The position numbers were made by a program, and so were the translations under genes. DNA of 29,681 nt from Prochloraceae cyanobacterium (GTDB lineage Bacteria; Cyanobacteriota; Cyanobacteriia; Cyanobacteriales; JASJDA01): positions 1 to 29,681 of the forward strand of contig JASJCW010000031.1 in the NCBI GenBank assembly GCA_030065265.1. Direction: 5' to 3'. Position 1 is the stretch's first letter. Each line of letters begins with the position of its first letter. Positions 1-19,338 of the stretch are shown piece after piece. The notes below the pieces were generated by a model. It ran no database searches, was not told the origin of the DNA, and saw only the letters and a program-made list of their open reading frames with translations.

Positions 1-117
1 GCCCAAGCCTCAGATATTTTGCAACGTTATTTAAGTGCAGCTTTAACCGATACTATGCCCGTCGAAAAAGCAATGACAGCAGCGGCTTCAGAAACAAGAA
101 GATTGCTCGCCAAGTAA
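1..117 (+). CDS. 3' end (C-terminal ~38 aa) of an upstream gene, possibly a family-1 sugar ABC transporter substrate-binding protein; runs off the window start
   Basis: Open frame from base 1 to TAA at 115-117: AQASDILQRYLSAALTDTMPVEKAMTAAASETRRLLAK*. The ending resembles the C-termini of MalE/GgtB-like SBPs (A/T-rich helix, ...Q/E-T-R-x-L-L-K). Fragment only, so weak. Confidence 0.35.
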   Translation, partial: AQASDILQRYLSAALTDTMPVEKAMTAAASETRRLLAK

Positions 118-260
118 GCGATCGAGCCAAAAAAGATCTCGAAAAATCCGAATCGGCGATCCTTTTTAACATTTCCAAGATTAAATGAAAGAAGCAGCTC
201 TTTAGATTGGTACTCATTTTATCGATTTTCAAGCAGGTAAATTAATCAAAAAACAAATTC

Positions 261-1676
261 ATGAGCGATCGCGAAACAACCTTAGAAAAATTAAAACTAT
301 ACCAGCTATGGAATATGAATTGTGGCTTCCTCGGAATTCAATTCGGTTGGGGACTGCAAATGGCAAACATGAGTGCTATTTTTGAGTATCTAGGAGCTAA
401 TGCTTATCAACTACCCCTGCTTTGGATTGCCGCCCCTTTAACTGGTTTAGTCGTTCAACCGATCGTTGGCAATCTCAGCGATTATACTTGGGGGCCTTTA
501 GGGAGAAGAAGGCCTTATATCTTAGTCGGTGGAATACTTGCTTTTATTGGCCTGATATTGATGCCACATTGTTCTGCTCTCTGGATGGCCGCAGGATTGT
601 TGTGGATTTTAGATACCAGCGTCAATGTAAGTATGGTACCGTTTCGGGCATTTGTCGGCGATTTATTGCCTAAAGAGCAACGTACTTTAGGCTTTGCGAT
701 GCAAAGTCTGATGGTAGGAATCGGTGCAGTATCAGCTTCAGCTTTACCCTGGATTCTAAGTCATATTTTTTCAATATCCAACGCCAGCACGATCGCGAAC
801 ACAATACCCCTCAATATTGAAATTTCTTTTTACATCGGTGCGGCAGTATTTTTAATTACAATATTGTGGACTGTCATCACCACTAAGGAAAAACCTCCCA
901 AAAATTTAGAAAAGTTCGAGCAATTGCAAGAGCAAAGAGGCGGTATTCTCTCGAGCGTAAAAGAAACTTGGCTCTCTTTAGGAAAAATGCCTCCAACCAT
1001 GCAACAATTAGCCTGGGTGCAGTTTTTTACCTGGTTGGGTATCTTTTGTTTCTTTCTCTATTTTGCTCCAGCCGTAGCCAGAAATATCTTCGGTGCAGTT
1101 TCTCAAGACTCGAATTTATACGCTGAAGGAGTCGAATGGGCCGGATTGTGTTTTGCTTTGTATAATGCTATTTGCGTTGGTTTTTCTTTTCTTTTACCCT
1201 ATCTCGCCGAACGCACCAGCCGTCAAATTACCCACAGTTTTTGTCTGGTTTGCGGCGGGTTGAGTTTAATCTCGTTATTAGTAATTCAAAATCAATATGT
1301 TTTACTCTTAACTACGATCGGATTTGGGATAACTTGGGCCAGTGCCCTCTCAATGCCTTATGCAATGTTAGTCGGATCTATTCCCCCGCAACGTCAAGGA
1401 ATATATCAAGGCATTTTTAACCTCTTTATCGTTCTACCAGAAATAGCTGTTTCTTTAGGTTTTGGTTGGGTAATGAGAAACGTACTCCACGAAGATCGGG
1501 TTTTAGCAGTGGTCTTAGGGGGAGCATTTTTACTAGTAGCCGCAGCTTTAACCCTATTGGTCAAAACAGCTCCAACTACAATCGAGAGTCAATCCCCAGC
1601 TCAAAGCTTGTCGGGACTGACTTCAGGAGATTCTCAAAAAGTAGCTGTCAAATTAGAAGCTAAAATCGAAAATTAA
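261..1676 (+). CDS. MFS transporter of the GPH / sucrose:H+ symporter (SUT/SLC45-like) family, 12-TM
   Basis: 471-aa ORF. The N-terminal region LGIQFGWGLQMANMSAIFEYLGA...PLLWIAAPLTGLVVQPIVGNLSDYTWGPLGRRRPYIL closely matches the signature of plant/bacterial sucrose transporters (LGIQFGWALQ...GPLSGLLVQPLVG..SD....RFGRRRPFI). It is hydrophobic throughout. Confidence 0.75.
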   Translation: MSDRETTLEKLKLYQLWNMNCGFLGIQFGWGLQMANMSAIFEYLGANAYQLPLLWIAAPLTGLVVQPIVGNLSDYTWGPLGRRRPYILVGGILAFIGLILMPHCSALWMAAGLLWILDTSVNVSMVPFRAFVGDLLPKEQRTLGFAMQSLMVGIGAVSASALPWILSHIFSISNASTIANTIPLNIEISFYIGAAVFLITILWTVITTKEKPPKNLEKFEQLQEQRGGILSSVKETWLSLGKMPPTMQQLAWVQFFTWLGIFCFFLYFAPAVARNIFGAVSQDSNLYAEGVEWAGLCFALYNAICVGFSFLLPYLAERTSRQITHSFCLVCGGLSLISLLVIQNQYVLLLTTIGFGITWASALSMPYAMLVGSIPPQRQGIYQGIFNLFIVLPEIAVSLGFGWVMRNVLHEDRVLAVVLGGAFLLVAAALTLLVKTAPTTIESQSPAQSLSGLTSGDSQKVAVKLEAKIEN

Positions 1677-1864
1677 CGTTATTATTCCTTGAGGAAGAGG
1701 ATCGAAATAATTCTTATTATCTAGAATTGAGAGGATAATGGCAAAAAGCGAAAATAAGCGCAATTTCCTTGGTGTTTAAGCTTTTTGCTCGTACTAAATG
1801 TCTTAATTTCTACTTGAATCGATCTAGATTTTAGTTCGGCCCTAATTTAAATCAATCAAACAAT

Positions 1865-4800
1865 ATGGTCAATCGTTTAGTAGAGCAAAGTCTAGGTATA
1901 TCCAGGTGGAAAGTGGGTCGCTTGACTCAACTTCTCCTTCTGGCTGGCTCTGTACTGATATATAGTGTCATGTCAATGGCAGTTGCAAATTCTCTATTTG
2001 TCAGTCATGTCGGAGCCGAAAAATTGCCGATCGCTTTTATTTTAATCGGCTTATTTTCTCTGCCAGCTTATGCTGTATTTTCCCAGGTTGTCGATAGTTA
2101 CAGTCGCCCCAAACTATTTCGCTACGCTTTATTTGTCGCGATCGCCCTGGCAATTGGCTTGCGTCTTTTACTCAATTTAGAAGCAACACCAGTTTATTAT
2201 CTGCTGCTAATTATTGTTTTCTTCCATTGGGATTTTCATAACAATATTTTGTATCCCAGTTTACTAACAGATTATTTTACAACTTTAGAATACAAAAAAT
2301 ACGCCCCTTTTATCGGCATAACTCAAGCGATTGGAACTCTTTTAGGAGGAGTTTTAACAGCTTTATTGTGTCAATTTTTAACCACTAAAGACTTACTACT
2401 TTGTTTGCCGATTGTCTTCGCAATTGCGATCGCCCAATTAATTTATTTAGAGAATTCCCAACGACCTTTAGATCGGATTAAAACAGAAAATAGAGTTAGT
2501 ATTGTCGAAGCTTTAAGAACTTTCCCAGATTTAGTAAAACGCTTTCCTTTGGTTTTATTTTTAGCTAGTAGCAGCTTCGTTTTAGTTATTATTTATATTA
2601 CATCGGAATTTTTATGGTTTAATATTTACGGTCAGCATTTCAGCCACGAAGCTTTAACCGCATTTTTAGGTTTAATGCGGATTTATATTAGCATTTTAAG
2701 CGCGATCGTTTTATATGTAATCACCCGTCCTTTATTGCAATGGTTGGGAGTGATGCGAATGAATGCGATCTACCCGATGACAACTTTAGCTAGTTTTATC
2801 CTTCTGAATCTAAATTTTAATTTAGGCTCGGCTATTTTACTTCATCTCAACGGCGATTCTCTCTATAAAAGCATTAACTTGCCCGTCCATCAACTCAACT
2901 ACAATGCCATTCCTCCCGAATTTTTAGGGCGAGTGAGAACCATTAGCGACGGTGTAATTTACTCGGTGGGTTTGACCTTAGCCGGAGTTTTACTCTGGAT
3001 CTGTAACTCTTATCTAGAATTAAACCAAATAGTCTGGATCGGCATCTTTTTAAGCGCGATACTGCTCTTAATTCGCTTGCCAATGGGCAAATATTACGCC
3101 AAAGGTCTAGAAGATACGATCAGATCCGGATCGATTGAATTAGACGATTTCAATAATTATCACATTCAACTACCCCCCCAATCCAGCGCGGCAATTCGCG
3201 AACTACTAACCGACAGCGATCGCTACAGTCAAATAAAAGGTTTAGAAATGGCCGCTAAAGTAGGCAACCCGAGTCAATTCTTGCCAGAAGTTCGCGCCAT
3301 CTTACCCCAGGCTAACCCCGAATTTCGCCATTCGATCGTCAAGCTGTTTAGTTCTACTACCGACTCAAAAATGTTAGAACATTTTGAGAGCCTTCTCGAA
3401 GCAGAAAATCCAATTTTGCGAGAAACAGCTTTAGAAATATTAATTGCCAATCAATATCCAATTGCCGAAGCAAAACTAGATATTCTATTATTAGACCGTC
3501 AAAAAGAAATCAGCGTTTTAGCAGCAGTAGCGGTCAATCAGTTAAAAGAAACCGGAGAAATAAACGAAACTATTTTTGAAACCGAACTAGCCGAAAAAAC
3601 CGCCACAACCCTAGCTAGAGTAATCGGTTACACCGGCGATCGCAACTTAATCGGCATGCTCGAACCGATTTTAGCCAGCGAAAGTTCCCAAGTTAAAACA
3701 AAAGTTCTCGAAGCACTAACCAATTTAGCCCAAATCGGCGATCGCCAACTAGCCAACTTAGCAGTTAAAGAAATCAAAAATTCCTCCGCAATGGTCAGAG
3801 CTAGTGCTTTTAACCTCTTGAAAGCAACTAGATGCAAAGGAATGTTGCGTTACGCCGCGATCGGCCTCGAAGACGAAGATCCTAAAGTGCGGAATGCAGC
3901 AGCCAAAACCCTCGCAGCATACGGCAAAGAAGGTTTATCCCTTGCAGAAGATAGTTTATCATCTTCCAACCCAGAAGTAGTCACAGCAGCGATCGCCGCG
4001 ATCGGACAAGTCAAAACCAAACAAGCTAGCGACATTCTCTTTCAATATCTCGCTCCAGATTTTCAACAACTGAGTTTAACTCGCAAATGGCAGCAACAAA
4101 TCCCGCAAAATGACCCCAGTTGGCAGCCATTTACGATTGCGATCGCAGACTACCATCAACGTTTAATTCAAAAAGTTCTCTACATCCTCTCTTGTTTGGG
4201 ACACTATAAAACAGTTAATACAGTCAACCGCATTCTGGCAATTAGCGATCGCAGAACTTTAGCAAACGCTGTCGAAGTATTAGCCTCTCTCAACCATCGT
4301 CGCTTCTTTTTGCCAGTAATGCCCCTACTCGAAGATTTAGTAAAATCTAACGAAAAATCGGCCTCAAACAGCAAAAAAGACCGCAATCCTTGGCTGCGAT
4401 CGAAAGGCTACAAAATTCTCCTAGAAGCACTCGAGTCGGAAGATCGCTGGATTAGAACTGGCGCGCTGATCGCAACCGCAGGAATACCTTATGCTTTAAT
4501 AAAAGACCCCGATCCTTTTGTTAAACAAGTTGCCAGAGAAATATTTCCCCCAGTCGATCGATGTTCCCTAACTACCGCAAGTGCTGCTATGAATAGATTA
4601 CTATTACTTAAAAATATTGCCCTTTTTAAAAATCTCTCCCTCGATGAATTGCTGCAAATCGATCGAGCATTAGAATCAGAACAATATTTAGCCGGAGATA
4701 CGATCTTTAGCGAAGCTAGTTGGGGTACTCACCTTTACATTGTCGCCGAGGGACAAGTAAAAATTATCAAAGAGATAGATGGGGAAACAACCGAGATTAA

Positions 4801-5137
4801 AAGACTCGGTGTCGGTCAATATTTTGGCGAGGTTACTCTGTTCGACGATGCACCCCACTGGGAAGGGGCGATCGCTTTTTCCGACTGCACCTTACTTAAA
4901 TTAGAAAAGAATCGCTTTATTAGTTTGATTACCCAGCGACCCCATATTATTCTAGAAATTTGCCGTTTCTTGAGTCAAAGACTTCGGGAAACAGACCGTT
5001 TTAGAACCCCGAAAAAGTTCTTACCTCCTGCTGAAAATCTCAAATTAGATTTAGATACTTTTTCAGAAACACCCCGAGATCGAGTTGCCAACAGGATTCA
5101 AAATCACAATCAAAGCGAAGCTTCTTTTAAATCATAA
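1865..5137 (+). CDS. Large multidomain membrane protein: N-terminal ~400-aa polytopic domain resembling TLC (ATP/ADP translocase-like)/MFS, central HEAT/PBS-lyase-type repeats, C-terminal cyclic-nucleotide-binding (cNMP/CAP-family) domain
   Basis: 1090-aa ORF. N-terminus SHVGAEKLPIAFILIGLFSLPAYAVFSQVVDSYSRPKLFRYALFV fits the TLC-family pattern (GAE-ipflK...P....lY..l...). The middle has repeated DxDxxVRxxAAxALGxIG-type HEAT units (e.g. EDEDPKVRNAAAKTLAAYG, LESEDRWIRTGALIATAG). The C-terminus LLKNIALFKNLSLDELLQI...GDTIFSEASWGTHLYIVAEGQVKI...GVGQYFGEVTLFDDAPHWEGAIAFSDCTLLKL matches the cNMP-binding fold (FGE..L, RTA-like region). Its stop TAA (5135-5137) overlaps the next ATG (5137-5139). Confidence 0.8.
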   Translation: MVNRLVEQSLGISRWKVGRLTQLLLLAGSVLIYSVMSMAVANSLFVSHVGAEKLPIAFILIGLFSLPAYAVFSQVVDSYSRPKLFRYALFVAIALAIGLRLLLNLEATPVYYLLLIIVFFHWDFHNNILYPSLLTDYFTTLEYKKYAPFIGITQAIGTLLGGVLTALLCQFLTTKDLLLCLPIVFAIAIAQLIYLENSQRPLDRIKTENRVSIVEALRTFPDLVKRFPLVLFLASSSFVLVIIYITSEFLWFNIYGQHFSHEALTAFLGLMRIYISILSAIVLYVITRPLLQWLGVMRMNAIYPMTTLASFILLNLNFNLGSAILLHLNGDSLYKSINLPVHQLNYNAIPPEFLGRVRTISDGVIYSVGLTLAGVLLWICNSYLELNQIVWIGIFLSAILLLIRLPMGKYYAKGLEDTIRSGSIELDDFNNYHIQLPPQSSAAIRELLTDSDRYSQIKGLEMAAKVGNPSQFLPEVRAILPQANPEFRHSIVKLFSSTTDSKMLEHFESLLEAENPILRETALEILIANQYPIAEAKLDILLLDRQKEISVLAAVAVNQLKETGEINETIFETELAEKTATTLARVIGYTGDRNLIGMLEPILASESSQVKTKVLEALTNLAQIGDRQLANLAVKEIKNSSAMVRASAFNLLKATRCKGMLRYAAIGLEDEDPKVRNAAAKTLAAYGKEGLSLAEDSLSSSNPEVVTAAIAAIGQVKTKQASDILFQYLAPDFQQLSLTRKWQQQIPQNDPSWQPFTIAIADYHQRLIQKVLYILSCLGHYKTVNTVNRILAISDRRTLANAVEVLASLNHRRFFLPVMPLLEDLVKSNEKSASNSKKDRNPWLRSKGYKILLEALESEDRWIRTGALIATAGIPYALIKDPDPFVKQVAREIFPPVDRCSLTTASAAMNRLLLLKNIALFKNLSLDELLQIDRALESEQYLAGDTIFSEASWGTHLYIVAEGQVKIIKEIDGETTEIKRLGVGQYFGEVTLFDDAPHWEGAIAFSDCTLLKLEKNRFISLITQRPHIILEICRFLSQRLRETDRFRTPKKFLPPAENLKLDLDTFSETPRDRVANRIQNHNQSEASFKS

Positions 5138-6447
5138 TGAATACTCCCACAGATTATTTACTCCATCGCGATACCTTATCTCTCAAACATCAAGAATTAG
5201 CCCTAACCTTGGCAAATACAGAAAATATTCTGATAATTCAGGATCTCGATGGGGTATGTATGGGATTAGTTAAAGATCCGCTCAAAAGAACTATTGCCAA
5301 AGAATACGTTGCAGCAACTAGATCCTTTCAAAGCCACTTTTATGTCTTAACAAACGGAGAACATATCGGCCGCAGAGGAGTTAATGGCATTATTGAAAGA
5401 GCATTTCAAGATCGGCTCAAAGTCAAAGAAGAAGGTTTATTCTTACCCGGCTTGGCTGCTGGAGGAATTCAGTGGCAAGATAATTACGGTAATATCGATC
5501 ATATCGGTGTCAGCGAAGCAGAACTGTCTTTTCTCGAAGCAGTACCCGTTAAAATTGAAACTCGCTTAAAAGAGTTTTTCGCTCGATATCCAGAAGTTTT
5601 CAATCCAGCAGAACTAGAAGCATGCATTCAAGCCACCGTACTCAAAAACAAAGTCTCCCCTACAGCTAATTTAAATACTTTTTACGACCGACTCGGCAGC
5701 GATCGCCGCGATATTTATATTTCTTTGCAACAAGCAATGCAAGATTTAATGGCCGAGTTATTGCTTGAAGCCAAACAAAAAGGTCTAGAAGATTCCTTCT
5801 TCGTCCATTATGCTCCCAACCTCGGTAAAGGCGATCGGGGCAATGAAATTCTCTGGCCCGCTAGTGCTGAAAATTCAGGAACTACTGACTTTCAATTTAT
5901 GCTCGTCGGTGCCGTCAAAGAAGCAGGAGTCGTCGTAATTTTAAACAAATACTATCATTACCAGATCGGGGAATATCCCCTCGGCAAAGATTTTAACATC
6001 AGAGCCGCCGTGCAACAAAAACAAGATCTCTTCGGCTTAATTAAAAGTAATTTCGACCCGCAAATTATGCCGAAAATAGTCGGTGTTGGCGATACGGTGA
6101 CCAGCAAAGCTGAAACTACCGATAACGGCCTCGAGTTTAAAAGAGGAGGAAGCGATCGCAACTTTTTGCAATTAATTCAAGACCTCAGCGCAGCGTTCGA
6201 TACTGGTAATATTATTACTTATATCGACAGTTCTGGCGGCGAAGTTAAAAACCGCAAACCGCTCCAATTAGCTAAATTGAGCGACGATCGCCGAGAAAAT
6301 GTTACCGAAGAATTTAAAGTCATTCAAGGGCCCGGAGACGATCGCGATCGAGAAGATCCTCTCAAGCTCAACGTTGTCTTTCCCGGAGGCCATCAAGATT
6401 ATATTAAATGCTTTGTTCGAGCAGCAAAAATGCGCGCTAGCAAATAA
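5137..6447 (+). CDS. ggpP: HAD-like phosphatase, candidate glucosylglycerol-3-phosphate phosphatase (GgpP/StpA-like)
   Basis: 436-aa ORF. It has an N-terminal DLDGV motif (HAD motif I). Its size is close to Synechocystis StpA (422 aa). It sits immediately upstream of ggpS, within a glpK/glpD/ggpS cluster. It is translationally coupled (TAATG) to the upstream sensor-like gene. The functional call comes from context plus motif, not a verified alignment. Confidence 0.5.
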   Translation: MNTPTDYLLHRDTLSLKHQELALTLANTENILIIQDLDGVCMGLVKDPLKRTIAKEYVAATRSFQSHFYVLTNGEHIGRRGVNGIIERAFQDRLKVKEEGLFLPGLAAGGIQWQDNYGNIDHIGVSEAELSFLEAVPVKIETRLKEFFARYPEVFNPAELEACIQATVLKNKVSPTANLNTFYDRLGSDRRDIYISLQQAMQDLMAELLLEAKQKGLEDSFFVHYAPNLGKGDRGNEILWPASAENSGTTDFQFMLVGAVKEAGVVVILNKYYHYQIGEYPLGKDFNIRAAVQQKQDLFGLIKSNFDPQIMPKIVGVGDTVTSKAETTDNGLEFKRGGSDRNFLQLIQDLSAAFDTGNIITYIDSSGGEVKNRKPLQLAKLSDDRRENVTEEFKVIQGPGDDRDREDPLKLNVVFPGGHQDYIKCFVRAAKMRASK

Positions 6448-7001
6448 TAGTCTGGCAAAAAATTAATATTTCACCAATTGATTTGACTTCTCTTCATAAA
6501 GTGTAATAAAAGGTTTCCTTCGGAGAATCGTAATGTTAGTATATGTTACGTATTAGTGAAAAATTAACTGCAATACTGCGTTTATAGCAAAGCTATGCAA
6601 TAGGAAATTGCCATAAATTGAAAAATAATTCTATAAATACAAAAAGTTGGGATTGAATTAAAAATTGATAGTAGTTAGAAAGTATTTTTAATCTAGATTT
6701 AATAGCTCCAATAAAGATCCCATTTACCTAAAAATTCTGCCAAAAAACAATAAATAAATTGGAGAAAATCTAGAAAATAAAATAGCAGCAAGTTCGAGAT
6801 ACTAACTTTTTACTGAAAATATAATCTCAATTATAAGTATTTAATCGTATTGTCTGTTAGGGTAGCAAAAATTATTTTCAATGTTATCTAAATTTTTATA
6901 AACGCGATCGGCCCGTTTTACTGATAAGTTAGAAAAATGTTTTATAAAACTCCTGTAGGTTAGTTCCAATTAACACAAAGGATTATTCAAAAAATAAACC
7001 C
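6448..7001 (+). promoter_or_regulatory. 554-bp AT-rich non-coding 5' region of ggpS (promoter/leader; possible regulatory RNA or small ORF region)
   Basis: No ORF of 60 aa or more on either strand. It is extremely AT-rich with poly-A/T tracts. In Synechocystis the ggpS upstream region carries the small regulator ggpR and is post-transcriptionally regulated. Exact promoter elements not resolved. Confidence 0.3.
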
Positions 7002-8486
7002 ATGAAATCTTCTCTAGTCATTCTCTATCATCGCGAACCTTACGACGAAGTAGTCGAAAACGGGAAAACTCGCTATTTACCCAAAAAAAGCCCCAACGGT
7101 ATCGTTCCTACCCTCAAAAGCTTCTTCGCTGAAGTCAGTCAAGGAGCGTGGATCGCTTGGAAACAAATAACAGTCAAACAAAAAGCAAAATTTCAAGCCA
7201 AAGTGCAGGTTGAAGAAGAACAGGGAAACTACGATGTTGTCAGAATTCCTTTAAACGCAGAACAAGTTAAACAGTTCTATCACATCACTTCCAAAGAAGC
7301 ATTTTGGCCTATTTTGCACTCTTTTCCTTTTCACTTCACCTACGAATCTTCCGACTGGGAAAACTTTAAAAATATCAATCGTTTATTCGCCGAAGCAGCC
7401 TGTGAAGAAGCTGCAGACGATGCTTTAATTTGGATTCACGATTATAATTTGTGGCTAACACCTCAATACATCAGAGAAATTAAACCAGACGCAAAAATTG
7501 CATTTTTTCACCATACCCCCTTCCCTTCAGTAGACATTTTTAACATTTTGCCTTGGCGAGAAGAAATCGTTAATAGTTTGCTTTGTTGCGACATTGTCGG
7601 GTTTCACATTCCTAGGTATGCAGAAAATTTTGTTAATGTTGCTCGCAGTTTGCAGCCGTTAGAAATTTTAGAAAAAAAAGCTGTCACCGGACATATGACC
7701 CCCGTAGGGACTGCTTTAGCAGAGCCAGAAGTAACCACTAAGCTCAAGTTTAAAGGACAGGTGGTCAACGTCGATGCTTTCCCCGTCGGAACTAATCCCG
7801 GATATATTCTCTCAGTATTGAGCCAAGAAGAAACTCAAAAAAGACTCGCTCAAATTGAAGAAGAGTTACAAGGACGCAAATTAATTATTGCTGCAGGTCG
7901 AGTAGACTACGTTAAAGGCAACAAAGAAAAATTAGATGCTTTCGGTCGCTTGCTAGAACGCCGTCCCGACCTACATGGTAAAATCAACTTCGTCATGACC
8001 TGCGTGCAACCTGCGGTTGGTATGCGAGTCTATAAAACTGCTCAAGGTCAAATCGAGCAATTAGTCGGGAAAATAAACGGCAGATATGCCAAACTAGGCT
8101 GGACACCGATCTTACTCTTCACCCAACCCTTACCCCTATCAGATTTATTCTGTTACTACCGTTTAGCAGATATTTGTTGGACGACACCCCTGCGAGACGG
8201 CTTAAATTTAGTCGCCAAAGAATATGTGATCGCTCACAAAGGTGAAGGAGGAGTTCTGGTTCTTTCCGAATTCGTTGGTGCTGCAGTAGAATTGCCAGAA
8301 GCAATTTTAACTAATCCTTACTCCATCGATCGCATGGATGAATCCATCGATCGCGCCCTATCGATGCCCAAAGAAGAACAAAAAGAAAGAATGGCGAAAA
8401 TGTACGAAACCGTCAGCAAATACGATGTTAAGTATTGGGCCGATCGCCTTCTAGACTCCTTCAAAGCCATTAAAGAGCAAAATTGA
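7002..8486 (+). CDS. ggpS: Glucosylglycerol-phosphate synthase (GT20 family, OtsA-like)
   Basis: 494-aa ORF. It contains LIWIHDYNLWLTPQYIRE (compare OtsA IIWIHDYHLLP), FFHHTPFPSVDIFNILPWREEI and LNLVAKEY motifs of GT20 trehalose-P/GG-P synthases. The N-terminus SLVILYHREPYDEV... and the length (~499 aa in Synechocystis GgpS) fit GgpS rather than OtsA. It neighbours glpK and glpD. Confidence 0.8.
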   Translation: MKSSLVILYHREPYDEVVENGKTRYLPKKSPNGIVPTLKSFFAEVSQGAWIAWKQITVKQKAKFQAKVQVEEEQGNYDVVRIPLNAEQVKQFYHITSKEAFWPILHSFPFHFTYESSDWENFKNINRLFAEAACEEAADDALIWIHDYNLWLTPQYIREIKPDAKIAFFHHTPFPSVDIFNILPWREEIVNSLLCCDIVGFHIPRYAENFVNVARSLQPLEILEKKAVTGHMTPVGTALAEPEVTTKLKFKGQVVNVDAFPVGTNPGYILSVLSQEETQKRLAQIEEELQGRKLIIAAGRVDYVKGNKEKLDAFGRLLERRPDLHGKINFVMTCVQPAVGMRVYKTAQGQIEQLVGKINGRYAKLGWTPILLFTQPLPLSDLFCYYRLADICWTTPLRDGLNLVAKEYVIAHKGEGGVLVLSEFVGAAVELPEAILTNPYSIDRMDESIDRALSMPKEEQKERMAKMYETVSKYDVKYWADRLLDSFKAIKEQN

Positions 8487-8557
8487 CAGCCCAAATAAAC
8501 CGGCAAATTTGAGAGTTCGAGCAGTCAGCAGTTAGCAGTCAGCAAGATTCTTACTCG

Positions 8558-10063
8558 CTACTCGCTCCAATTTTTTGCCCTTTCTACGGCTTTTTGCCAA
8601 ATGCGATAACTATCCTCAATGCGATCGCGACCGCCTTTTGCCGGCTCGAAAACGCGATCGATCTTGCGAGTCGAAATTAAAGCACCGTAATCGTCCCAAA
8701 AACCGACAGCTAAACCAGCACCAAAAGCAGCACCTTGCGCGGTAGCATCCAAAATAGCCGGACGCTCGACGGGAATACCTAAAGCATCAGCTTGAAACTG
8801 CATTAAAAAATTATTTTGAGAAGCACCACCATCAACTTTTAAACGAGCCACAGAAAAATCGCTATCTCGGTTAGCCGCTTCAACAACCTCTTTAACCCGA
8901 TAGGCGATCGCTTCTAAAACAGCTCTGACGGCATGTTCTCGCTTCACTCCCCCAGTAAGACCTAAAAAAGCACCTCGAGCGTTAGTATCCCAGTGTGGCG
9001 CGCCCAAACCGCTCAATGCAGGGACAAAATAGACCCCATTCGTATCTTCGACGCTGCTGGCTAAATCTTCCGTTTCTGGCGCGCTGGCAATTATTTTCAA
9101 GCCATCTCGCAACCATTGTATCGATGCACCCGTAGTGAAGATCGCACCTTCTAAAGCGTAATTAGTCGAATCAGGTTGCGTCCAAGCAACGGTAGAGAGC
9201 AGTTTTTGGGACGAGCGAGTTAAATTGAGTCCGGTTTGTACGATTAAAAAAGAACCAGTGCCGTAGGTGCATTTTAACAAGCCCGGGCGATCGCACCCAT
9301 GAGCGAATAAAGCCGACTGCTGGTCGCCAAATATTGCCGTAATCGGAATTTCTGCATCCAATAGTTGGGGATCGGTCTTGCCGAAACTGCCCATACTGTG
9401 TTTGATTTCCGGCATCATCTGGGTGGGAATGGCAAATAAATCCAATAATCGGCGATCCCATTCTAAAGTGGCTAAATTCATTAGCATAGTCCGACTTGCG
9501 TTACTATGGTCGGTGGCATGTACTTGACCGCCAGTCAAATTCCACAAAATCCAACTATCGATCGTCCCAGCAATTACATTATCTAAATCGATCGCCGGTC
9601 TTTCTTGCTTGACCCAATTTAGCAACCAAGTCAGTTTAGTTGCCGAAAAATAAGGATCGAGAATTAATCCCGTAATTTCTTGAATTTCTTTATCTTTGCC
9701 TTTTGCTGCTAAATCGCGACACATTGAAGCAGTACGACGATCTTGCCAGACGATCGCCTTGTGCAAAGGTTCTCCTGTTGTTTTGTCCCATAACAAACAA
9801 GTTTCTCTTTGAACTGTCAAACCGATTGCAGCAATTTCTCGAGCCGAAATCTTGGTATTTTGCAAAACTAATTCGATTACAGTGCGAGTATCTTGCCAAA
9901 TTTCCCGCGCGTCGTGTTCGAGCCAGCCGGGTTGGGGATAATATTGAGTTAATTCTTTGTAAGCTTGGCCGACAATATTGCCGCTGCGATCGAATAAAAT
10001 TGCTCTATTTCCTGTCGTACCTAAATCTATTGCTAGAACGTATTTATAAGTATTGTTTGTCAT
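8558..10063 (-). CDS. glpK: Glycerol kinase
   Basis: N-terminal YVLAIDLGTTGNRAILFD matches the FGGY-kinase / GlpK signature, as do the internal GLTVQRET, ALEGAIFTTGASIQWLRDGL and GGASQNNFLMQFQADALGIPVERP motifs. The ORF-track start at 10111 adds 16 non-conserved residues. The internal ATG at 10061-10063 (MTNNTYKYVLAIDLG) is the likely start. Confidence 0.9.
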   Translation of the reverse strand: MTNNTYKYVLAIDLGTTGNRAILFDRSGNIVGQAYKELTQYYPQPGWLEHDAREIWQDTRTVIELVLQNTKISAREIAAIGLTVQRETCLLWDKTTGEPLHKAIVWQDRRTASMCRDLAAKGKDKEIQEITGLILDPYFSATKLTWLLNWVKQERPAIDLDNVIAGTIDSWILWNLTGGQVHATDHSNASRTMLMNLATLEWDRRLLDLFAIPTQMMPEIKHSMGSFGKTDPQLLDAEIPITAIFGDQQSALFAHGCDRPGLLKCTYGTGSFLIVQTGLNLTRSSQKLLSTVAWTQPDSTNYALEGAIFTTGASIQWLRDGLKIIASAPETEDLASSVEDTNGVYFVPALSGLGAPHWDTNARGAFLGLTGGVKREHAVRAVLEAIAYRVKEVVEAANRDSDFSVARLKVDGGASQNNFLMQFQADALGIPVERPAILDATAQGAAFGAGLAVGFWDDYGALISTRKIDRVFEPAKGGRDRIEDSYRIWQKAVERAKNWSE

Positions 10064-10213
10064 AGTAGGGAACGGGTCAAAATAATAAATTGAACTGCAA
10101 TTATAGAGCAAGTCGCGAGTAAAATTCCGAGGAGAAAATCTTACTTAAATTAATTTAAAATTCAAGATTTTTTTACTCTTTATTCAAAAAATTTTACTCT
10201 CTTGATGCTCTAT

Positions 10214-12721
10214 TTAATCTTCCGATTTTTGAATCGGTTTTAATAATAAAGCTTGACTGTTAGCTAAATTAAAACAACGCAGATCTGCTAAATTATTATT
10301 ATCATTTAGTCCTACAGAAGCAAGATCGACAGTCCATTCTGACATATCCAGTTGCAACCAGTCCCCTAAAGTAATTTCAAAAGGCTCGCCTTCGAGATGG
10401 GCTACCATTGCGATTTGTTCGGTAGGATTTTCTGGATTAGAGCGAATCCCGTAAAAAATCGTGCGATCGCCTTCACTAATTTTATTAAAACGATCTGTTG
10501 CTTTGAGATTCCCATTCAACCAGGAGCGATCGCGACGAAATTGTCGCAATTTAAGATTGAATTCCGTATTGTCAGGATTGAGATCTTCTAAGTAATGGGA
10601 AACATTGCAAACTTCATAGCAATCTTCCATAAACATTTGGGCAAATTTTTTAAATCTTTCTACATTTAGCTTGCGAATGTAACTGATAATTTCAGGAGTA
10701 TCCAGAAATTTCATGAAGAAAAGATCGGTATCGGAAATATCAATGCGATCGTTTTTAATTAAACTGTGAAAAGTTTGAATTACCTCTAAGAGATCGTAAT
10801 TTCTTTCTAATATGGTTTCTTCTAAAAACCTACCAAAAGCCCGCAACTGTTCTAAAGTTTTAAAACCGAGAGATTTGACCCGAGGAAAAACCCATTCTCG
10901 ATCGTAAAATTCCGGGCTAATTTGCCAATCTAAAAAGCCCATTTCTTCGGAAATAACTTTAACACCGTAGCGATCGTCAGTATTGCGAAAAAACATCCAG
11001 GGCGATCTGGTAGTACAATTAATAAAATCCATCGGCAAACCCGGAGAAAAACCGTAAACCCACAAAGTGACGGCTTGATTGTCGTAGGCATGGCGAATTA
11101 CTTCAGTTAAATTTTCCCCCAATCGCCAGTTGATTGGCTTGCTAGGATCTACTTGAGAACCGCGTCTGAGGGTATCGTGATTGCCGCAACCAGTGATCCA
11201 GCGATCGCCCATCTGAATTACTTCGCAGACTCGCCGCCATTTCCGTTCCCAAAAACCAGTCAAAGTGGGGGTATTGTGGGCAAAAATTAGCGGCCCCCAT
11301 TGGTAAGATTCGGGTTTGAGTTCGATTAATTCCCGATAGGTAGATTTTTCTTCCCAACCTTCTTCGGGCCAGGGGCGACCGTCTTCATAAATCGTGAAAA
11401 GCAATCTTTGACAGCCATTTATTTCTTGAACTAAATCGCTCATTGCCAACAAATAGGCATCGTCTTGTTCTACTCTTCCAGATAAAGGATTAAAAAAGCG
11501 GAAATCCTGACCGCCATCGACGCGAATACCATCAGCCCCAGTGTTAATTTTACGACGCTGCAGTTCCAAAAATATCGCCCGCACCGTCGGCAATTGATGG
11601 TTGAGATCTTGCCCGTACATATTCGGGCCTTTAAGATACTGACGGTTAATTAATAATTCGGCTTGATTGTCAGCATGACCGTAAACTAAATCGTAAATGA
11701 TTTGAATCGGGCCCGTAGGAAAATTATGTAAAGTAGCGATAAAATCAATTAGTTCGTCCGGGCGCAGACTTTGTAAAATAGCTGGGTTGGTAGCACTAGA
11801 ACCGAGAATAGGAACGTCGTAGCCCCAATCTTGAGTATTTGGTTTTAATAATTTAATTGGCGATCTGTTGAGGGGAGGAAGTATTCTCGCTTTGCGATCT
11901 GATTCTTTATCAGCAAACAAAAAAAATTCACTTTCTTGCTGGTAATTTTGCCTGTATTCGATCGGCGGTTCGATCGGCAATAACTGTACTGCATCGTAAC
12001 CGACATAACATTCTTCTGCCGGAGTAAGCGGAATATTTTCTCGGATTTTGCGACTGATTTGACGGTAAATTTCCGTTAAACCGGCGATCGTTCCCGATCG
12101 CGAAGCAGTACCGATATGAAGTTGTAAAATAGCAACTGGCGCGCCAACTCGAGGCACTTCTTCATCCCCGTTCGCTCTTGAAGTGCGCCGCAAATATTCC
12201 ATATCTTCCCGATTGGCCTGCAAACTCTCCATATCGTAAAGTTCGGCCGGAGCAAAGATACCGAAAGGTAGAGAATAGGGCATCATATCCCGAATTGTTT
12301 GCAATTGCCCTTTTTGATTGTAGTAGCGCAACCAATAAAAACAACCAGGTCGATCTTTAGTTCCAGCTTGCATCCCTTCGATCGCACCCCAAAAAAATTC
12401 ACCTTGCTGTTTTAAACGCAAACAGTCGCGGCGAAAATGAGTAGTTTGCATCGGCGATCGCCAGTCGATTTCTTCTAAGGGAGTAAAAACTTCTAAATAT
12501 ATATCTCGCGGTCGCATTATTTCCCCAGTTAATTCCGGGGCCCAAAAACCTATTTCAGTCAAACCATTCTGACGGTGGTAGTGCGCACCTAATTTAGTAG
12601 CTAAGGCTTCTGCTCTCTCAAAAACAGTTGCATCGGACTGTTCTATTTCTTTAGCCCAGTCCAATAATTCTTGGGTTGCATCCTCAGCAAGTTTGACAAA
12701 ATCTTTTGTTTCTATAACCAT
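10214..12721 (-). CDS. gghA: GH13-like glycoside hydrolase, candidate glucosylglycerol hydrolase (GghA-like)
   Basis: 835-aa ORF. GYDAVQLLPIEP resembles GH13 region I (GxTHVELLPV). ADGIRVDGGQDF resembles GH13 catalytic region II (DGFRxDAAKH). Its size is close to Synechocystis Slr1670/GghA. It lies directly upstream of glpK on the same strand, as gghA does relative to glpK in Synechocystis. Confidence 0.5.
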   Translation of the reverse strand: MVIETKDFVKLAEDATQELLDWAKEIEQSDATVFERAEALATKLGAHYHRQNGLTEIGFWAPELTGEIMRPRDIYLEVFTPLEEIDWRSPMQTTHFRRDCLRLKQQGEFFWGAIEGMQAGTKDRPGCFYWLRYYNQKGQLQTIRDMMPYSLPFGIFAPAELYDMESLQANREDMEYLRRTSRANGDEEVPRVGAPVAILQLHIGTASRSGTIAGLTEIYRQISRKIRENIPLTPAEECYVGYDAVQLLPIEPPIEYRQNYQQESEFFLFADKESDRKARILPPLNRSPIKLLKPNTQDWGYDVPILGSSATNPAILQSLRPDELIDFIATLHNFPTGPIQIIYDLVYGHADNQAELLINRQYLKGPNMYGQDLNHQLPTVRAIFLELQRRKINTGADGIRVDGGQDFRFFNPLSGRVEQDDAYLLAMSDLVQEINGCQRLLFTIYEDGRPWPEEGWEEKSTYRELIELKPESYQWGPLIFAHNTPTLTGFWERKWRRVCEVIQMGDRWITGCGNHDTLRRGSQVDPSKPINWRLGENLTEVIRHAYDNQAVTLWVYGFSPGLPMDFINCTTRSPWMFFRNTDDRYGVKVISEEMGFLDWQISPEFYDREWVFPRVKSLGFKTLEQLRAFGRFLEETILERNYDLLEVIQTFHSLIKNDRIDISDTDLFFMKFLDTPEIISYIRKLNVERFKKFAQMFMEDCYEVCNVSHYLEDLNPDNTEFNLKLRQFRRDRSWLNGNLKATDRFNKISEGDRTIFYGIRSNPENPTEQIAMVAHLEGEPFEITLGDWLQLDMSEWTVDLASVGLNDNNNLADLRCFNLANSQALLLKPIQKSED

Positions 12722-12847
12722 AATGTTAATACGTTGGAAATATTATTGCTGATTTTTAAACAATACAGCAAAATTAACACTCAATATTTCTTTGGCAAAA
12801 AACCGAACTATGATGGAATTTAGTAAACATTCATAAAATCGTAAATC

Positions 12848-14533
12848 GTGAGAGACTATCAATCAATTAAAAATACAAGCTACGAAGCAATAATTATCGG
12901 TGGAGGGATAAATGGAGCGGGAGTAGCTCGAGATGCTGCTTTAAGAGGATTAAAAACTATTTTAATCGAAAAAAACGATTTTGCTAGTGGTAGTTCTAGT
13001 TGGTCTACTAGATTAGTGCATGGAGGGTTGCGATATCTAGAATATTTTGAATTACCTTTAGTAAGAGAGTCTTTAAAAGAAAGAGAAATTTTATTAAACA
13101 TCGCCCCTCATTTAGTTAAACCTCTTTTATTAACCGTACCAGTTTACGGCGATCGCTCTCGCCCTTATTGGAAAATTTGGGCTGGAATGATTCTGTACGA
13201 TCTTTTTAGCTTTGATAAAACCCTCCCGGGTTATAGAATGCTAAATAAAGCAAAATTTAAGCGGATTTTTCCGACTTTAGATCCTGAAAATTTAAGTGGT
13301 GGAGCGCAATATTACGACGCTCGAGTTGCTCATGCTGAAAGATTGTGTCTTGAAAATATTATTTCAGCTAAAGAAGCCGGTGCAGACGTACTCAATTACG
13401 TCAAAGTAACTCGATTGCACCTTGAAGGGAAGAAAATTACTCATCTTACCTGCAAAGATACCTTGACAGGAGAAGAATTTACAGTTAAAGGCACAGAAGA
13501 TGCAGTGATTGTAAACACTTCAGGCCCTTGGGTAGATGAAGTATGTGGTTCTATTGAAATCGAAGCAACCAAAGCCGACAGTTCCAAGGCGATCGTTCAC
13601 GGTAAAAAAATGGGGCCGACTAAAGGCAGCCATATTGTTGTCGATCCTTTTCCAGGTGCGCCAGAAAGCGGTCTTTACGTTGAAGCTAAATCCGACGGTC
13701 GTCCTTTCTTTATTTTGCCTTGGTTGGGTAAATATTTAATCGGAACTACGGATTTTCCCTATCACAAAGATCTCGAATCGATCAAAGCAGATAACGATGA
13801 AATCGATTATTTATTAACAGAAACAAATAATATTTTACCGACAGCTAATTTATCGCGCCAAGATATTAAATTCACCTATTCTGGAGTGCGTCCTTTACCA
13901 AACGAAGCAGGAAAAAAAGCCGGGAGTATTACTCGCTCTCACATTCTCTTTGACGGAAAAAAAGAAGGGGTATTTAATTTAATTTCTCTAATTGGCGGCA
14001 AACTAACAACCTATCGTCAAGTAGGCGAAGAAATAGTCGATGCGATTTTAAAAAAACAAGGCAAACCAATTTCTAGCTCTAAAACGGCTCTTCAACCTTT
14101 ACCCGGAGCTATTAAAGCCTCTAATCCTCTGATTCAAAAAACTATCGATCTATATCGGGATAAAGTTTCTTTAAACATTATTGCCCATCTCTTTTCTCTT
14201 TACGGAGCTAGAGCTGTCTCAGTTTTAGAATTAACCGAAGAAAATCCTGAATTAGCCGAAACTATTCATCCCGAATTACCAGATATTAAAGCCCAACTCG
14301 TCTATGGAGTCCGAGTTGAATTTGCCCTGAGTTTAGTAGATTTGATTCGCCGTCGCACTGCGATCGCCATGGAGGCTAATTACGGCTTAGATGTACTGAC
14401 AACCTCGATCGAAGTTTTACAAAAATATTGCAATTGGAGCGCAGAACGTTGCGAACTGGCTCGTTCTGAATATATTACTTATATGAAAAACAATTGCATT
14501 CCCGATTTTGAATTAGAGGCAAACTTAATATAG
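12848..14533 (+). CDS. glpD: FAD-dependent glycerol-3-phosphate dehydrogenase
   Basis: YEAIIIGGGINGAGVARDAALRGLKTILIEKNDFASGSSSWSTRLVHGGLRYLE is the classic GlpD N-terminal FAD-binding signature (GGGINGAG...D.A.GTSS.S.KL.HGGLRYLE). 561 aa. Confidence 0.9.
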   Translation: MRDYQSIKNTSYEAIIIGGGINGAGVARDAALRGLKTILIEKNDFASGSSSWSTRLVHGGLRYLEYFELPLVRESLKEREILLNIAPHLVKPLLLTVPVYGDRSRPYWKIWAGMILYDLFSFDKTLPGYRMLNKAKFKRIFPTLDPENLSGGAQYYDARVAHAERLCLENIISAKEAGADVLNYVKVTRLHLEGKKITHLTCKDTLTGEEFTVKGTEDAVIVNTSGPWVDEVCGSIEIEATKADSSKAIVHGKKMGPTKGSHIVVDPFPGAPESGLYVEAKSDGRPFFILPWLGKYLIGTTDFPYHKDLESIKADNDEIDYLLTETNNILPTANLSRQDIKFTYSGVRPLPNEAGKKAGSITRSHILFDGKKEGVFNLISLIGGKLTTYRQVGEEIVDAILKKQGKPISSSKTALQPLPGAIKASNPLIQKTIDLYRDKVSLNIIAHLFSLYGARAVSVLELTEENPELAETIHPELPDIKAQLVYGVRVEFALSLVDLIRRRTAIAMEANYGLDVLTTSIEVLQKYCNWSAERCELARSEYITYMKNNCIPDFELEANLI

Positions 14534-14536
14534 AGA

Positions 14537-16054
14537 TTGAGGATAATGGATAATAATTTTTTTAAGGACTCGTTGGATAAAAAAGTTATCGAACAACGGG
14601 TTAGTGCAATTAGCCAAGCTAAGGTGGGATTTTATAGCATCGGTCTTTATCCGGCCTCTCTTGCTTACAATTCGGCAATGCAAAAAAGCAATAAATCTCT
14701 TCTATTAGCTACCCGGCCGGGAAGATCTCTCCTCGGGGCATTTTCTGAAGAGGAAATTAAAGGAATGGATCCCCGACACCTCGTCAAGATGCGTCGCATG
14801 GCATCCCATAAAGAAAACGGAAAATCCGTACCGAATACTCTAGAATACTTGATCGCAAAGTGCGATTTAATCGTCTTGAGTTCTAATAGTAAATACATCA
14901 AGCAAGATCTCGACCAAGCTTGCAATCTTAGAAAAAAGCTCGGTCGCACTAATGTCGTGCTTTCCTGTCTAGCAGGTTCTTTCAACCACGATGAAGCTAA
15001 TAATGAGTCTTATGTATTGTGCGAAAAATATCCCAATCTGGCCTTTTTCTCTGGATTTCATCGACACGGTTCGTTAAGAGATCCGGTAGATAGTTTTACA
15101 GCTAATTTTTGCCATCCCAATTCTTTAACAGCTTTGATCGGGGCCCACATACTGAATCAACTTTCTCCGAACATTCAAGTTTCTCCTGGAATTCACAATG
15201 TTGAAGCGCAATATTTGAAAGCTGCTAAAAATATGGCATCTATTTTTGCCGGTTTTGGTTATGTTTATCACGAGCAAAATCCAGGGATTCTGCCTACTCT
15301 ATTGACTTTGTTGCTCCATCAATGTTTAGATCAGGCTGCGACCGTTTCTATGTCGCGACAAGATCGCGAAAAGCTTTACACTCAGCAAACCATTGCTTTA
15401 ACGGAGTTAGGTTATGCTATACCGAGAATTGAAGCAGTCTTAAATAAAGGTGGTTTTACCGAAAAAGTTCGCGATCATACTTTTTCTCAATTAACGGCGA
15501 TGGTTGCTGACGTGCGAGGAAGTATGATGCTTCCAGTCACTGGGAAACCTACCAGAAATTTTCAAGCCGGACAAGCTTTAGCCTACGGTATGTCGAAACA
15601 CGGTCGCTGTCCGATCGACGTTAAAGAATTTGAACAGTGGTGTAAAGATGCTGGATTAAATGTCGGATCTTTAGAAGGTTTAAAAGCTTTGAAATACTGG
15701 CCGCAAATCGAAGCAAAATACTCAATTCAAAATCACGATGCTTCAATGGTTAATCTTCTTTATAAGGGATTGTATGGCACTGAAGAAGAAAAAGATTTTG
15801 CTTTTGAAGTGATGACACAAAGTCGAGAATTATCAAATTATTGTCAAGAGTCGGTTCGACATACCCACAGTCGCAAGTATGCAGAAGCCCTTAATCATAT
15901 CGAACAATTAGAAGCACTCGAATTAATTTCAAACGCTATTATTGCCGACAACGCGCGCAAAGCTATTCGCAATAACGATAATCCAATTGAAGAAAGAGAA
16001 TTAAATTCAGATACTCCAGCTTATTTGCGAGCAATTGACTCTATCGAACAATAG
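14537..16054 (+). CDS. Hypothetical protein with a GpsA-like (NAD-dependent G3P dehydrogenase / opine-DH fold) core, degenerate dinucleotide motif, ~120-aa C-terminal extension
   Basis: 505-aa ORF starting 3 nt after the glpD stop. Weak but collinear resemblance to GpsA: KVGFYSIGLYPASLA versus KIAVLGAGSWGTALA (glycines lost), CDLIVLSSNSKYIKQ versus ADLVLFVVPSQAFRE, LSCLAGSF versus VISGPTF, and TGKPTRNFQAGQALAYGMS versus TDNQSRNRRFGMMLGQGMD. Assignment is tentative. Confidence 0.4.
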   Translation: MRIMDNNFFKDSLDKKVIEQRVSAISQAKVGFYSIGLYPASLAYNSAMQKSNKSLLLATRPGRSLLGAFSEEEIKGMDPRHLVKMRRMASHKENGKSVPNTLEYLIAKCDLIVLSSNSKYIKQDLDQACNLRKKLGRTNVVLSCLAGSFNHDEANNESYVLCEKYPNLAFFSGFHRHGSLRDPVDSFTANFCHPNSLTALIGAHILNQLSPNIQVSPGIHNVEAQYLKAAKNMASIFAGFGYVYHEQNPGILPTLLTLLLHQCLDQAATVSMSRQDREKLYTQQTIALTELGYAIPRIEAVLNKGGFTEKVRDHTFSQLTAMVADVRGSMMLPVTGKPTRNFQAGQALAYGMSKHGRCPIDVKEFEQWCKDAGLNVGSLEGLKALKYWPQIEAKYSIQNHDASMVNLLYKGLYGTEEEKDFAFEVMTQSRELSNYCQESVRHTHSRKYAEALNHIEQLEALELISNAIIADNARKAIRNNDNPIEERELNSDTPAYLRAIDSIEQ

Positions 16055-16105
16055 TAAATTTAATTAAATCTAAGATATTTATTTAGTCCCACTTCCTCTG
16101 TAATA

Positions 16106-16177: not shown

Positions 16178-16323
16178 TAAAGTTGCTAAACTTCGGTGAT
16201 GAGAGGGAAGAGGCAATAGATTCGGAAAATAGATCTGTAGTATTATTTTAGGGAATTAGTATAAATCGATTTTTAACTACTTTAAAAAAAAGTACAATAA
16301 CATTGCAAAAAAATAGGTATTTT

Positions 16324-18709: not shown

Positions 18710-18721
18710 TGTTTCAATCTT

Positions 18722-19300: not shown

Positions 19301-19338
19301 ATTATAATTTTAGTTTTTGCGAGGATATTACAATTTTT

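Follow-up and report, generated by a model that had tools for sequence, protein, structure and literature searches.

The subject of this work is a 1090-residue membrane protein encoded at 1865-5137 in a 29,681-nucleotide stretch of a Prochloraceae cyanobacterium (assembly GCA_030065265.1, contig JASJCW010000031.1, positions 1 to 29,681 of the forward strand), the whole of which is hereafter called the window. We find that this protein, which is very likely an orthologue within the known cyanobacterial NTT-HEAT-cNBD family, is encoded in a conserved operon with a gene for a SUT/SLC45-type symporter, and it is this operon, together with the evidence against ATP/ADP as the substrate, that is new. 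A functional pairing of the large protein with the SUT-like carrier is likely. The explanation that we favour, for which we judge the chances to be about balanced, is that the large protein is a ligand-regulated transport component and partner of a glucoside symporter, recruited into a glucosylglycerol (GG) operon in the window lineage, whereas its role specifically in GG or compatible-solute handling is doubtful. The features on which the argument relies are the following:

261..1676, plus strand: gene for a SUT/SLC45-type (GPH) H+:glucoside symporter-like protein of the major facilitator superfamily (MFS), 471 residues, identified from Pfam and from its solved relatives
1677..1864, no strand: spacer of 188 bp between the MFS gene and the large gene, from the open reading frame (ORF) coordinates
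1865..5137, plus strand: NTT-HEAT-cNBD protein gene, with an ATG start and 1090 codons for amino acids, the longest ORF of the window
1904..3124, plus strand: 12-helix NTT/TLC-type MFS-fold membrane domain, residues 14-420, from the helices of the structural model (6+6), Foldseek and a sequence profile
3176..4612, plus strand: cytoplasmic HEAT-repeat solenoid, residues 438-916, from HEAT_2 and HEAT matches and the helical hairpins of the model
4640..4996, plus strand: CAP/PKA-type cyclic-nucleotide-binding (CNB) domain, residues 926-1044, from cNMP_binding, the model and solved CNB structures
4823..4876, plus strand: phosphate-binding cassette F987-G-E-V-T-L-F-D-D-A-P-H998-W-E-G-A-I-A1004, from the columns of the homologue alignment
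5009..5134, plus strand: C-terminal tail of the large protein, residues 1049-1090, unconserved and predicted to be disordered, with pLDDT below 50
5135..5139, plus strand: TAATG stop/start overlap, read directly from the sequence

A reading made from the sequence alone had described the large protein as a TLC/MFS-like membrane domain joined to HEAT repeats and to a CNB domain, and this anatomy is borne out by Pfam, by structural and profile matches to nucleotide transporters of the NTT type and by the model. HEAT_2 is matched at 71-75 bits (gathering score 27.7) over four stretches and HEAT at 50 bits, while cNMP_binding is matched at 68.6-71.9 bits (gathering score 27.5) over residues 939-1024. 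In the AlphaFold2 model, built on 47 homologues (mean pLDDT 75, pTM 0.52), the CNB region forms a β-barrel with strands within residues 937-1014, followed by C-terminal helices, and matches the solved CNB domains of PKA, PKG, CRP and MloK1; AlphaRep/HEAT proteins are found among the solved-structure matches of the HEAT region. Three Pfam families had been put forward for a domain scan, and two of them, PF13646 (HEAT_2) and PF00027 (cNMP_binding), are present, whereas PF03219 (TLC) gave no match for residues 1-450 even at E≤10, the membrane domain being matched in Pfam by MFS_1 only, below threshold (21-24 bits against 33.4). Since the Pfam TLC test fails on this sequence, the TLC-like nature of the membrane domain was established by fold and profile instead. 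Indeed, when the model is compared with solved structures by Foldseek, the three best matches are 9j3l, 9j3n and 9j3m, which are AtNTT1 and NTT1 of C. pneumoniae, with target-normalised TM-scores of 0.65-0.75 over approximately 480 columns at 13-14% identity, AtNTT1 (9j3l) being the best one (TM-score 0.75, 480 columns); HEAT/alphaRep proteins, and then the CNB domains of CRP, PKA and PKG, rank below the NTTs. In agreement, a profile of the N-terminal domain run against all PDB sequences has the NTTs first (CpNTT1, E 5e-9; AtNTT1, E 5.5e-6), and PF03219 is matched directly by 5 of 48 distant members of the family. Both the carrier-like and the CNB folds are thus present, and the attachment of a CNB domain to a carrier through a HEAT arm of about 480 residues suggests, as far as the model can tell, allosteric or scaffold control.

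The combination of domains had been regarded as unusual, which does not hold: more than 120 full-length cyanobacterial homologues, with 56-99% identity, have the same architecture, and the family has been described. Major, Embley and Williams (2017, Genome Biol Evol; PMC5381601) reported a monophyletic NTT-HEAT fusion family that is wide in bacteria and includes a cyanobacterial NTT-HEAT-cNBD clade limited to sections I-III (PMC5381601); every member is functionally uncharacterised according to these authors, who speculate that cAMP tunes ATP transport. Their sequence file lists the HEAT_cNBD protein WP_019507100.1 of Pleurocapsa sp. PCC 7319, whose N-terminus is identical to that of one of our homologues (P0038) and to which the window protein is 59% identical at 95% coverage, and it likewise holds a member from Acaryochloris marina. 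An exhaustive search with the N-terminal domain returned 1742 representatives at 50% clustering, mostly of about 1000-1100 residues, 108 of them at E≤1e-30; of the 48 distant members sampled, 42 have HEAT_2 and 39 have cNMP_binding.

The conserved upstream partner went unmentioned in the sequence-only reading. Its product matches Pfam MFS_1 at 97 bits and MFS_2 at 38.6 bits, as well as TIGR01301 (GPH_sucrose) at 119 bits, which is under the curated cut-off of 511; among solved structures it comes closest to Arabidopsis SUC1 (8bb6, E 1e-22) and to human SLC45A4, and bacterial relatives are labelled 'SLC45 family MFS transporter' by NCBI. In SUC1, Asp152 is the sole intramembrane acid, acting as proton donor/acceptor and contacting the glucosyl group, and it is the substrate's glucosyl part that is first recognised (PMC10281868). 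In the phmmer alignment of the MFS partner to 8bb6_A the equivalents of SUC1 Trp47, Gln50, Asp152, Asn156 and Arg163 are kept, within the conserved motifs QFGW..Q, W-I-L-D and P-x-R-A-F, and the RRRP motif is kept too. From these residues the MFS partner is a plausible glucoside:H+ symporter, and since GG, like sucrose, is an alpha-glucoside, either of them would be a chemically reasonable substrate. The closest relative of the MFS gene outside cyanobacteria lies on a Gemmatirosa plasmid (54% identity), where the gene context is uninformative.

The strength of the pairing was assessed over 93 loci collected from genomes, metagenomes and one plasmid, the first 86 of which were searched with every protein of the window and had all their ORFs clustered; grouping the large proteins at 90% identity gave 50 lineages, 42 of them with enough flanking sequence to be informative. 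A homologue of the MFS gene adjoins the large gene on the same strand in 34 of these 42 lineages, being upstream in 32 and downstream in two. In 14 lineages the two genes overlap by 4 bp in longest-ORF coordinates, instead of which the window has the 188-bp gap, with no terminator-like site on its plus strand; independent gene calls confirm the overlap in Pleurocapsa PCC 7319 (7556-9004/9001-12132) and in another complete genome (7601-9004/9001-12132). Clustering of the ORFs from the 86 loci yielded no conserved neighbour besides the MFS gene, what otherwise recurs being generic cyanobacterial genes (pentapeptide, TPS, CHAT/TPR, Amt and RmuC-like, the last judged by eye) and, in six loci, a GT4 transferase. 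Among four lineages outside the main set, one keeps the two genes side by side, 65 bp apart, two have no partner, and the fourth, Acaryochloris marina S15, carries a second copy of the large gene on plasmid NZ_CP064924, paired with an MFS gene beside an IS5 transposase and 4 kb from a gene for an MscS-type channel, its chromosomal copy (CP064923, locus L021; the plasmid one is L090) being unpaired and lying among P-type cation ATPase genes. The conserved pairing and the plasmid copy beside IS5 indicate that the unit of inheritance is a mobile two-gene module. A 500-residue ORF upstream of the large gene in a sub-clade at about 53% identity (L053-L056) had been suspected to be a divergent MFS protein and was rejected, since by eye its sequence resembles that of an RmuC-like coiled-coil protein rather than that of a transporter.

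As for the substrate of the large protein, the four AtNTT1 residues K155, E245, E385 and K527 are reportedly essential for ATP/ADP exchange, in work attributed to Trentmann et al. in 2000. Their positions were counted on an AtNTT1 sequence in which they are consistently K, E, E and K and which reproduces the alignment to chain 9j3j. Only E385 has a counterpart in the window protein, namely E248, which is invariant in the family; E245 aligns with Phe119/Phe120, K155 falls in a residue inserted in the NTTs relative to the family of the large protein (printed HMMER alignment), and K527 aligns with Leu370 (manual alignment), the latter two placements having been made in this way after hmmalign of AtNTT1 to the family profile left the ends unaligned. 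Where the NTTs carry RDTKD, the first membrane helix of the window protein is free of charged residues. A set of polar residues of the membrane domain is nevertheless invariant in the 47 homologues, for example N42, S43, D123, D136, K144, E248, N329 and D331, and further H342, Q343, N345, N347, R356, R358 and D362. The loss of ATP-site residues combined with so many invariant polar residues within the membrane would argue for a working carrier with a different substrate, which is probably not ATP/ADP.

At the other end of the protein, an inspection of the phosphate-binding cassette, which had been proposed for its conserved Glu and Arg, gave a divided answer. The Glu is present, F987-G988-E989 being invariant in the 47 homologues, whereas the residue that aligns with the phosphate-binding Arg of PKA and PKG is His998 (codon 4856-4858). 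This position is Arg in 37 of the 47 homologues and His in the other 10, which comprise the window protein, the Acaryochloris group and others, and the variant does not correlate with the presence of either the MFS partner or GG genes. On this basis, binding of cyclic nucleoside monophosphates (cNMP) is likely for most of the family and uncertain for the window protein, whose effector, given the His in place of Arg, may be something other than a classical cNMP or may bind weakly. The retention of at most one of the four AtNTT1 charged residues and the replacement of the phosphate-binding Arg by His both argue against simple cAMP-gated transport of ATP.

Downstream, the large gene runs into the next ORF, stpA (5137..6447, plus strand). 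The TAATG overlap is as had been described: positions 5132-5142 read ...TCATAATGAAT..., where the TAA stop at 5135-5137 shares its last A with the ATG at 5137-5139, and as no other Met stands ahead of the conserved QDLDG motif at the StpA N-terminus, this overlapping ATG is the likely stpA start. The same overlap is found in two metagenome contigs with 99% identity (L020 and L025) and in no other lineage collected. In fact, the C-termini of the homologues stop shortly past a conserved ...RLRETDKY motif, and the tail of the window protein, which extends the frame to the stpA start, is the longest among the 47 homologues and lacks conservation; the overlap thus looks like a frame extended through former intergenic DNA. 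Co-expression of the two genes had been held to be almost certain, and of this the overlap stands and the certainty does not, since it is an unconserved tail, possibly hiding a promoter of stpA, that forms the overlap. Transcriptional read-through from the large gene into stpA is nonetheless plausible, as it would be guaranteed unless a terminator intervenes, and the scan found none. An Rfam scan of the whole window gave zero matches and therefore no riboswitch or leader, and the G+C content is uniform at about 0.40 over 1-17000, so that base composition gives no sign of the module being a recent foreign insert.

The genes that follow place the module in a GG island, as had been recognised, and confirm that the downstream gene encodes the GG-phosphate phosphatase:

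5137..6447, plus strand: stpA, glucosylglycerol 3-phosphatase (TIGR02399, 506 bits, cut-off 365.5; Pfam Salt_tol_Pase PF09506, 559 bits)
7002..8486, plus strand: ggpS, glucosylglycerol-phosphate synthase (TIGR02398, 760 bits, cut-off 569)
8558..10111, minus strand: glpK, glycerol kinase (TIGR01311, 661 bits)
10214..12721, minus strand: GHL5-family glycoside hydrolase of the Slr1670/GghA family (PF14872, 1395 bits), whose function is that of a GG hydrolase (PMC5002435)
12848..14533, plus strand: glpD, FAD-dependent glycerol-3-phosphate dehydrogenase (NF008899, 362 bits, cut-off 360)

The sequence-only reading gave the link to GG a central place, which does not hold. GG genes flank the module in just two of the 42 informative lineages, the window's own included (where the linkage is seen in two metagenome contigs with 99% identity), and in none of the four lineages outside the main set. 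Co-localisation of homologues with GG genes thus does occur once more, in Lyngbya aestuarii, and is rare overall. In this organism the homologue is embedded in the order ggpS (766 bits)-glpD-gpsA-large gene-736 bp-MFS...glpK, which is unlike that of the window. Because GG genes flank the pair in only two lineages and are missing around a relative with 85% identity, the GG link is weak; the module became coupled to stpA recently and in the window lineage alone, and conservation of this coupling is lacking. The nearest relatives of both proteins have no GG link, which indicates that the two associations are recent and independent. Since it was the window that generated the hypothesis, the independent evidence for GG amounts to one further case among about 45 lineages. 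Softer support lies in the neighbours of the pair elsewhere, which include other genes related to sugars or osmotic balance, namely those for a pfkB kinase, a phosphoglucomutase, a glgA-like GT4 transferase, MscS-type channels and a channel with an OpuAC domain. A review from 2019 on the regulation of GG and sucrose mentions no cyclic-nucleotide or MFS link and names no cyanobacterial GG exporter (PMC6753628).

Several points weigh against the favoured reading. With respect to GG, the relative closest to the window protein, at 85% identity, lies among unrelated genes with no GG genes, and the one closest to the Lyngbya protein (72.5% identity) has the order pfkB-x-large gene-MFS, also without them; a single further GG case would arise by chance with a probability of about 0.1-0.15, roughly estimated from a 15-20 kb target in a genome of 5.5-6 Mb, which makes it suggestive and not significant. 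With respect to expression, co-transcription of the large gene with stpA is a plausible prediction from the gene layout, the stpA promoter could sit within nucleotides 5009-5134, in the unconserved tail, and consensus promoter and terminator scans over 1-8600 gave about as many hits as shuffled controls did, none of them in either junction. With respect to the pairing, the MFS gene is not adjacent in 8 of the 42 informative lineages nor in two of the four additional ones, so that the large protein can stand alone. The inter-domain geometry of the AlphaFold2 model is unreliable (pTM 0.52), and the loss of ATP residues would be a lead and not proof, since the list of residues is taken as reported and the alignment is weak or partly made by hand at two of the four. 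Finally, our literature search found no later paper characterising the NTT-HEAT-cNBD family and no experiment on any of its members, nor anything usable on NTT-HEAT function or on a cyanobacterial SUT homologue. Synechocystis slr0593 carries the annotation 'cAMP binding membrane protein' and would at most be a tentative orthologue of the large protein.

Much of the above would also be explained if the module served some other end, for instance general sugar scavenging or carbon-status signalling, had landed next to stpA by rearrangement and had acquired the overlap through a lost stop codon, with no role in GG metabolism. We hold this neutral juxtaposition to be possible, though clearly less probable than the favoured explanation. 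The rarity of GG flanks (2/42 and 0/4) agrees with it, as do the wholly different neighbourhood of the 85%-identical relative, the presence of pfkB in place of GG genes next to the 72.5%-identical relative of the Lyngbya protein, the unconserved C-terminal tail, longest in the family, that forms the overlap, and the occurrence of the module on a plasmid beside an insertion sequence (IS) element. It requires, however, that the module entered a GG cluster twice, independently and with differing gene orders, which is unlikely by chance, though possible; moreover, the MFS partner is predicted to recognise substrates of the glucosyl type, to which GG as an alpha-glucoside would belong, and the overlap forces at least transcriptional read-through into stpA unless there is an internal promoter.

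The other alternatives concern what the large protein does. In what Major et al. (2017) proposed for the family, ATP/ADP or some other nucleotide would be exchanged or imported through the NTT domain, with cAMP acting at the CNB domain to match the flux to the energy status; homology and likeness of fold to ATP/ADP translocators speak for this hypothesis (stated in PMC5381601), together with the Pfam TLC match in 5 of 48 relatives. It is nevertheless improbable in our judgement, as only E385 of the four AtNTT1 residues reported as essential has a counterpart (E248), the first membrane helix is uncharged where the NTTs have RDTKD, identity to the NTTs is 13-14%, the host is a free-living phototroph with no obvious external source of nucleotides, the conserved partner is a sugar carrier and the phosphate-binding Arg is His in the window protein. 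GgpS uses ADP-glucose, and this does provide a nucleotide connection within the island in favour of such a transporter. Alternatively, the membrane domain may serve only as a sensor of a solute or of the membrane state, a 'transceptor' that transports nothing and whose HEAT solenoid regulates the SUT-like carrier, or StpA/GgpS in the window lineage, according to the ligand of the CNB domain. This appears unlikely, yet less so than nucleotide transport. HEAT repeats are protein-interaction scaffolds (PMC5381601), which is what such a role would call for; the tight operon pairing with the carrier gene, often with translational coupling, fits a stoichiometric complex, and the substrate-site residues of the NTTs are lost. 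On the other hand, invariant polar and charged residues across the membrane helices and an intact 6+6 architecture look like a working carrier, and in ten lineages (eight of the main set and two additional) there is no adjoining partner gene.

In the favoured explanation, that of a ligand-regulated component and its glucoside symporter, the binding of a ligand to the C-terminal domain would be relayed via the HEAT arm to the carrier domain, and the large protein and the symporter would act jointly to take up, salvage or release a solute of the glucoside type such as GG, sucrose or similar, the large protein either carrying a co-substrate or counter-substrate or gating its MFS partner. In the window lineage the module would now be under common expression with the GG-phosphate phosphatase. 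A more specific version, which makes the NTT-HEAT-cNBD protein and the SUT/SLC45-like symporter parts of one ligand-gated system for the secondary transport of glucoside compatible solutes (GG or sucrose) and has the NTT-derived domain switched from nucleotides to a sugar-related substrate or counter-substrate, is tentative and, taken as a whole, rather unlikely, only marginally less so than the transceptor. If it were true, a first function would be assigned to a widespread family which is present also in Chlamydia and oomycetes, the secondary carrier or exporter of GG that is still missing in cyanobacteria would be identified, and second-messenger signalling would be tied to osmolyte fluxes; a native secondary carrier for glucoside osmolytes would also be useful to research on osmoadaptation and to GG/sucrose biotechnology. 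In any case, the near-constant SUT-type operon partner is the first concrete functional lead found for the cyanobacterial clade and, like the lost ATP-exchange residues, directs attention away from the transport of nucleotides.

The surroundings of the pair in other loci contain some further genes. In Oscillatoriales-type lineages, where the large gene precedes the MFS gene, a pfkB sugar kinase adjoins the large gene (L019, 1460-2317; L032, 8126-8995; L092, 5703-6578), and L019 has a phosphoglucomutase gene nearby as well. A GT4 glycosyltransferase of 395 residues, whose best model is the glgA_Coryne subfamily (170 bits, below cut-off), is encoded upstream of the pair, on the other strand, in six loci (L004, L029, L036, L049, L085 and L086). 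In L085 (6130-7317, minus strand) it is divergent from the MFS gene at a distance of about 0.3 kb, and in L086 it is about 3 kb off, with genes between. Divergent from the pair in L087 (5959-8145, minus strand) is a gene for a 728-residue protein that joins an OpuAC domain of the glycine-betaine-binding type to a glutamate-receptor-like ion channel, which is an unusual fusion resembling an osmolyte-sensing channel. Before the MFS gene in L020, a contig 99% identical to the window, a gene for a 443-residue sugar-type ABC substrate-binding protein (SBP_bac_1/SBP_bac_8) is found at 1406-2737, corresponding to just upstream of window position 1, and the GG island may therefore reach to the left of the window with a GgtB-like binding protein.

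Within the window, a 505-residue ORF at 14537-16054 (plus strand) belongs to the GG island, beginning 4 bp after glpD and apparently co-transcribed with it; neither Pfam nor NCBIfam gives a match, and none of the other collected loci contains a homologue. The AT-rich spacer of 554 bp upstream of ggpS (6448-7001; G+C 0.34 in the 1-kb bin 6001-7000) contains no plus-strand ORF of at least 20 residues wholly inside it and nothing obviously like ggpR, the small regulator gene located upstream of ggpS in Synechocystis. Just past the island lies a stress-associated cluster, made of four tandem TerD-domain paralogues of about 190 residues each at 18113-20713 (minus strand; 236-255 bits) and, after them on the other strand, of a gene for an SPFH/Band-7 protein with a GYF_2 domain at 22742-24040 (plus strand).

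When set against known systems, the window protein has the three domains of the NTT-HEAT-cNBD family in identical order; this family was reported with no gene context (PMC5381601), whereas we find the SUT/SLC45-like pairing and, in the GG island, the stpA overlap, and the window protein differs also in its His for the phosphate-binding Arg. With canonical NTT/TLC translocators (AtNTT1 and Npt1/Tlc of Chlamydia and Rickettsia; 9j3l, 9j3n) it shares the 12-helix MFS-type fold at TM-scores of 0.65-0.75, alignable motifs in helices 4, 7 and 10-11 and the Glu equivalent to E385, and it differs from them in the low identity of 13-14%, in having no PF03219 match, in lacking three of the four charged residues reported as needed for ATP/ADP exchange and the RDTKD of the first membrane helix, in its 670 extra cytoplasmic residues and in its host, a free-living phototroph. 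A membrane transport domain followed by a CAP/PKA-type CNB domain is known from the K+ channels MloK1 and SthK and from the sperm Na+/H+ exchanger SLC9C1, and the CNB structures match; their membrane domains are unrelated, however, and the window protein has a long HEAT solenoid where these have a short C-linker, as well as the His in the cassette.

The MFS partner, for its part, has SUC1 and SLC45A4 as its nearest relatives among plant SUC/SUT and animal SLC45 symporters, with the RRRP motif and the key SUC1 residues kept, and is set apart from them by its TIGR01301 score (119 against 511 bits) and by its operon with an NTT-HEAT-cNBD gene, an arrangement that SUT/SLC45 genes are not known to have. 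To our knowledge there is likewise no known secondary GG carrier in cyanobacteria. Transporter genes are associated with GG synthesis genes in other cases, these being the ABC importer GgtABCD of Synechocystis and the MFS gene ycaD next to ggpS in Stenotrophomonas, whose product is an uncharacterised candidate exporter (PMC6753628). The window module shares this association with them and differs in the transporter families involved and in its second-messenger domain, which neither of the two has.

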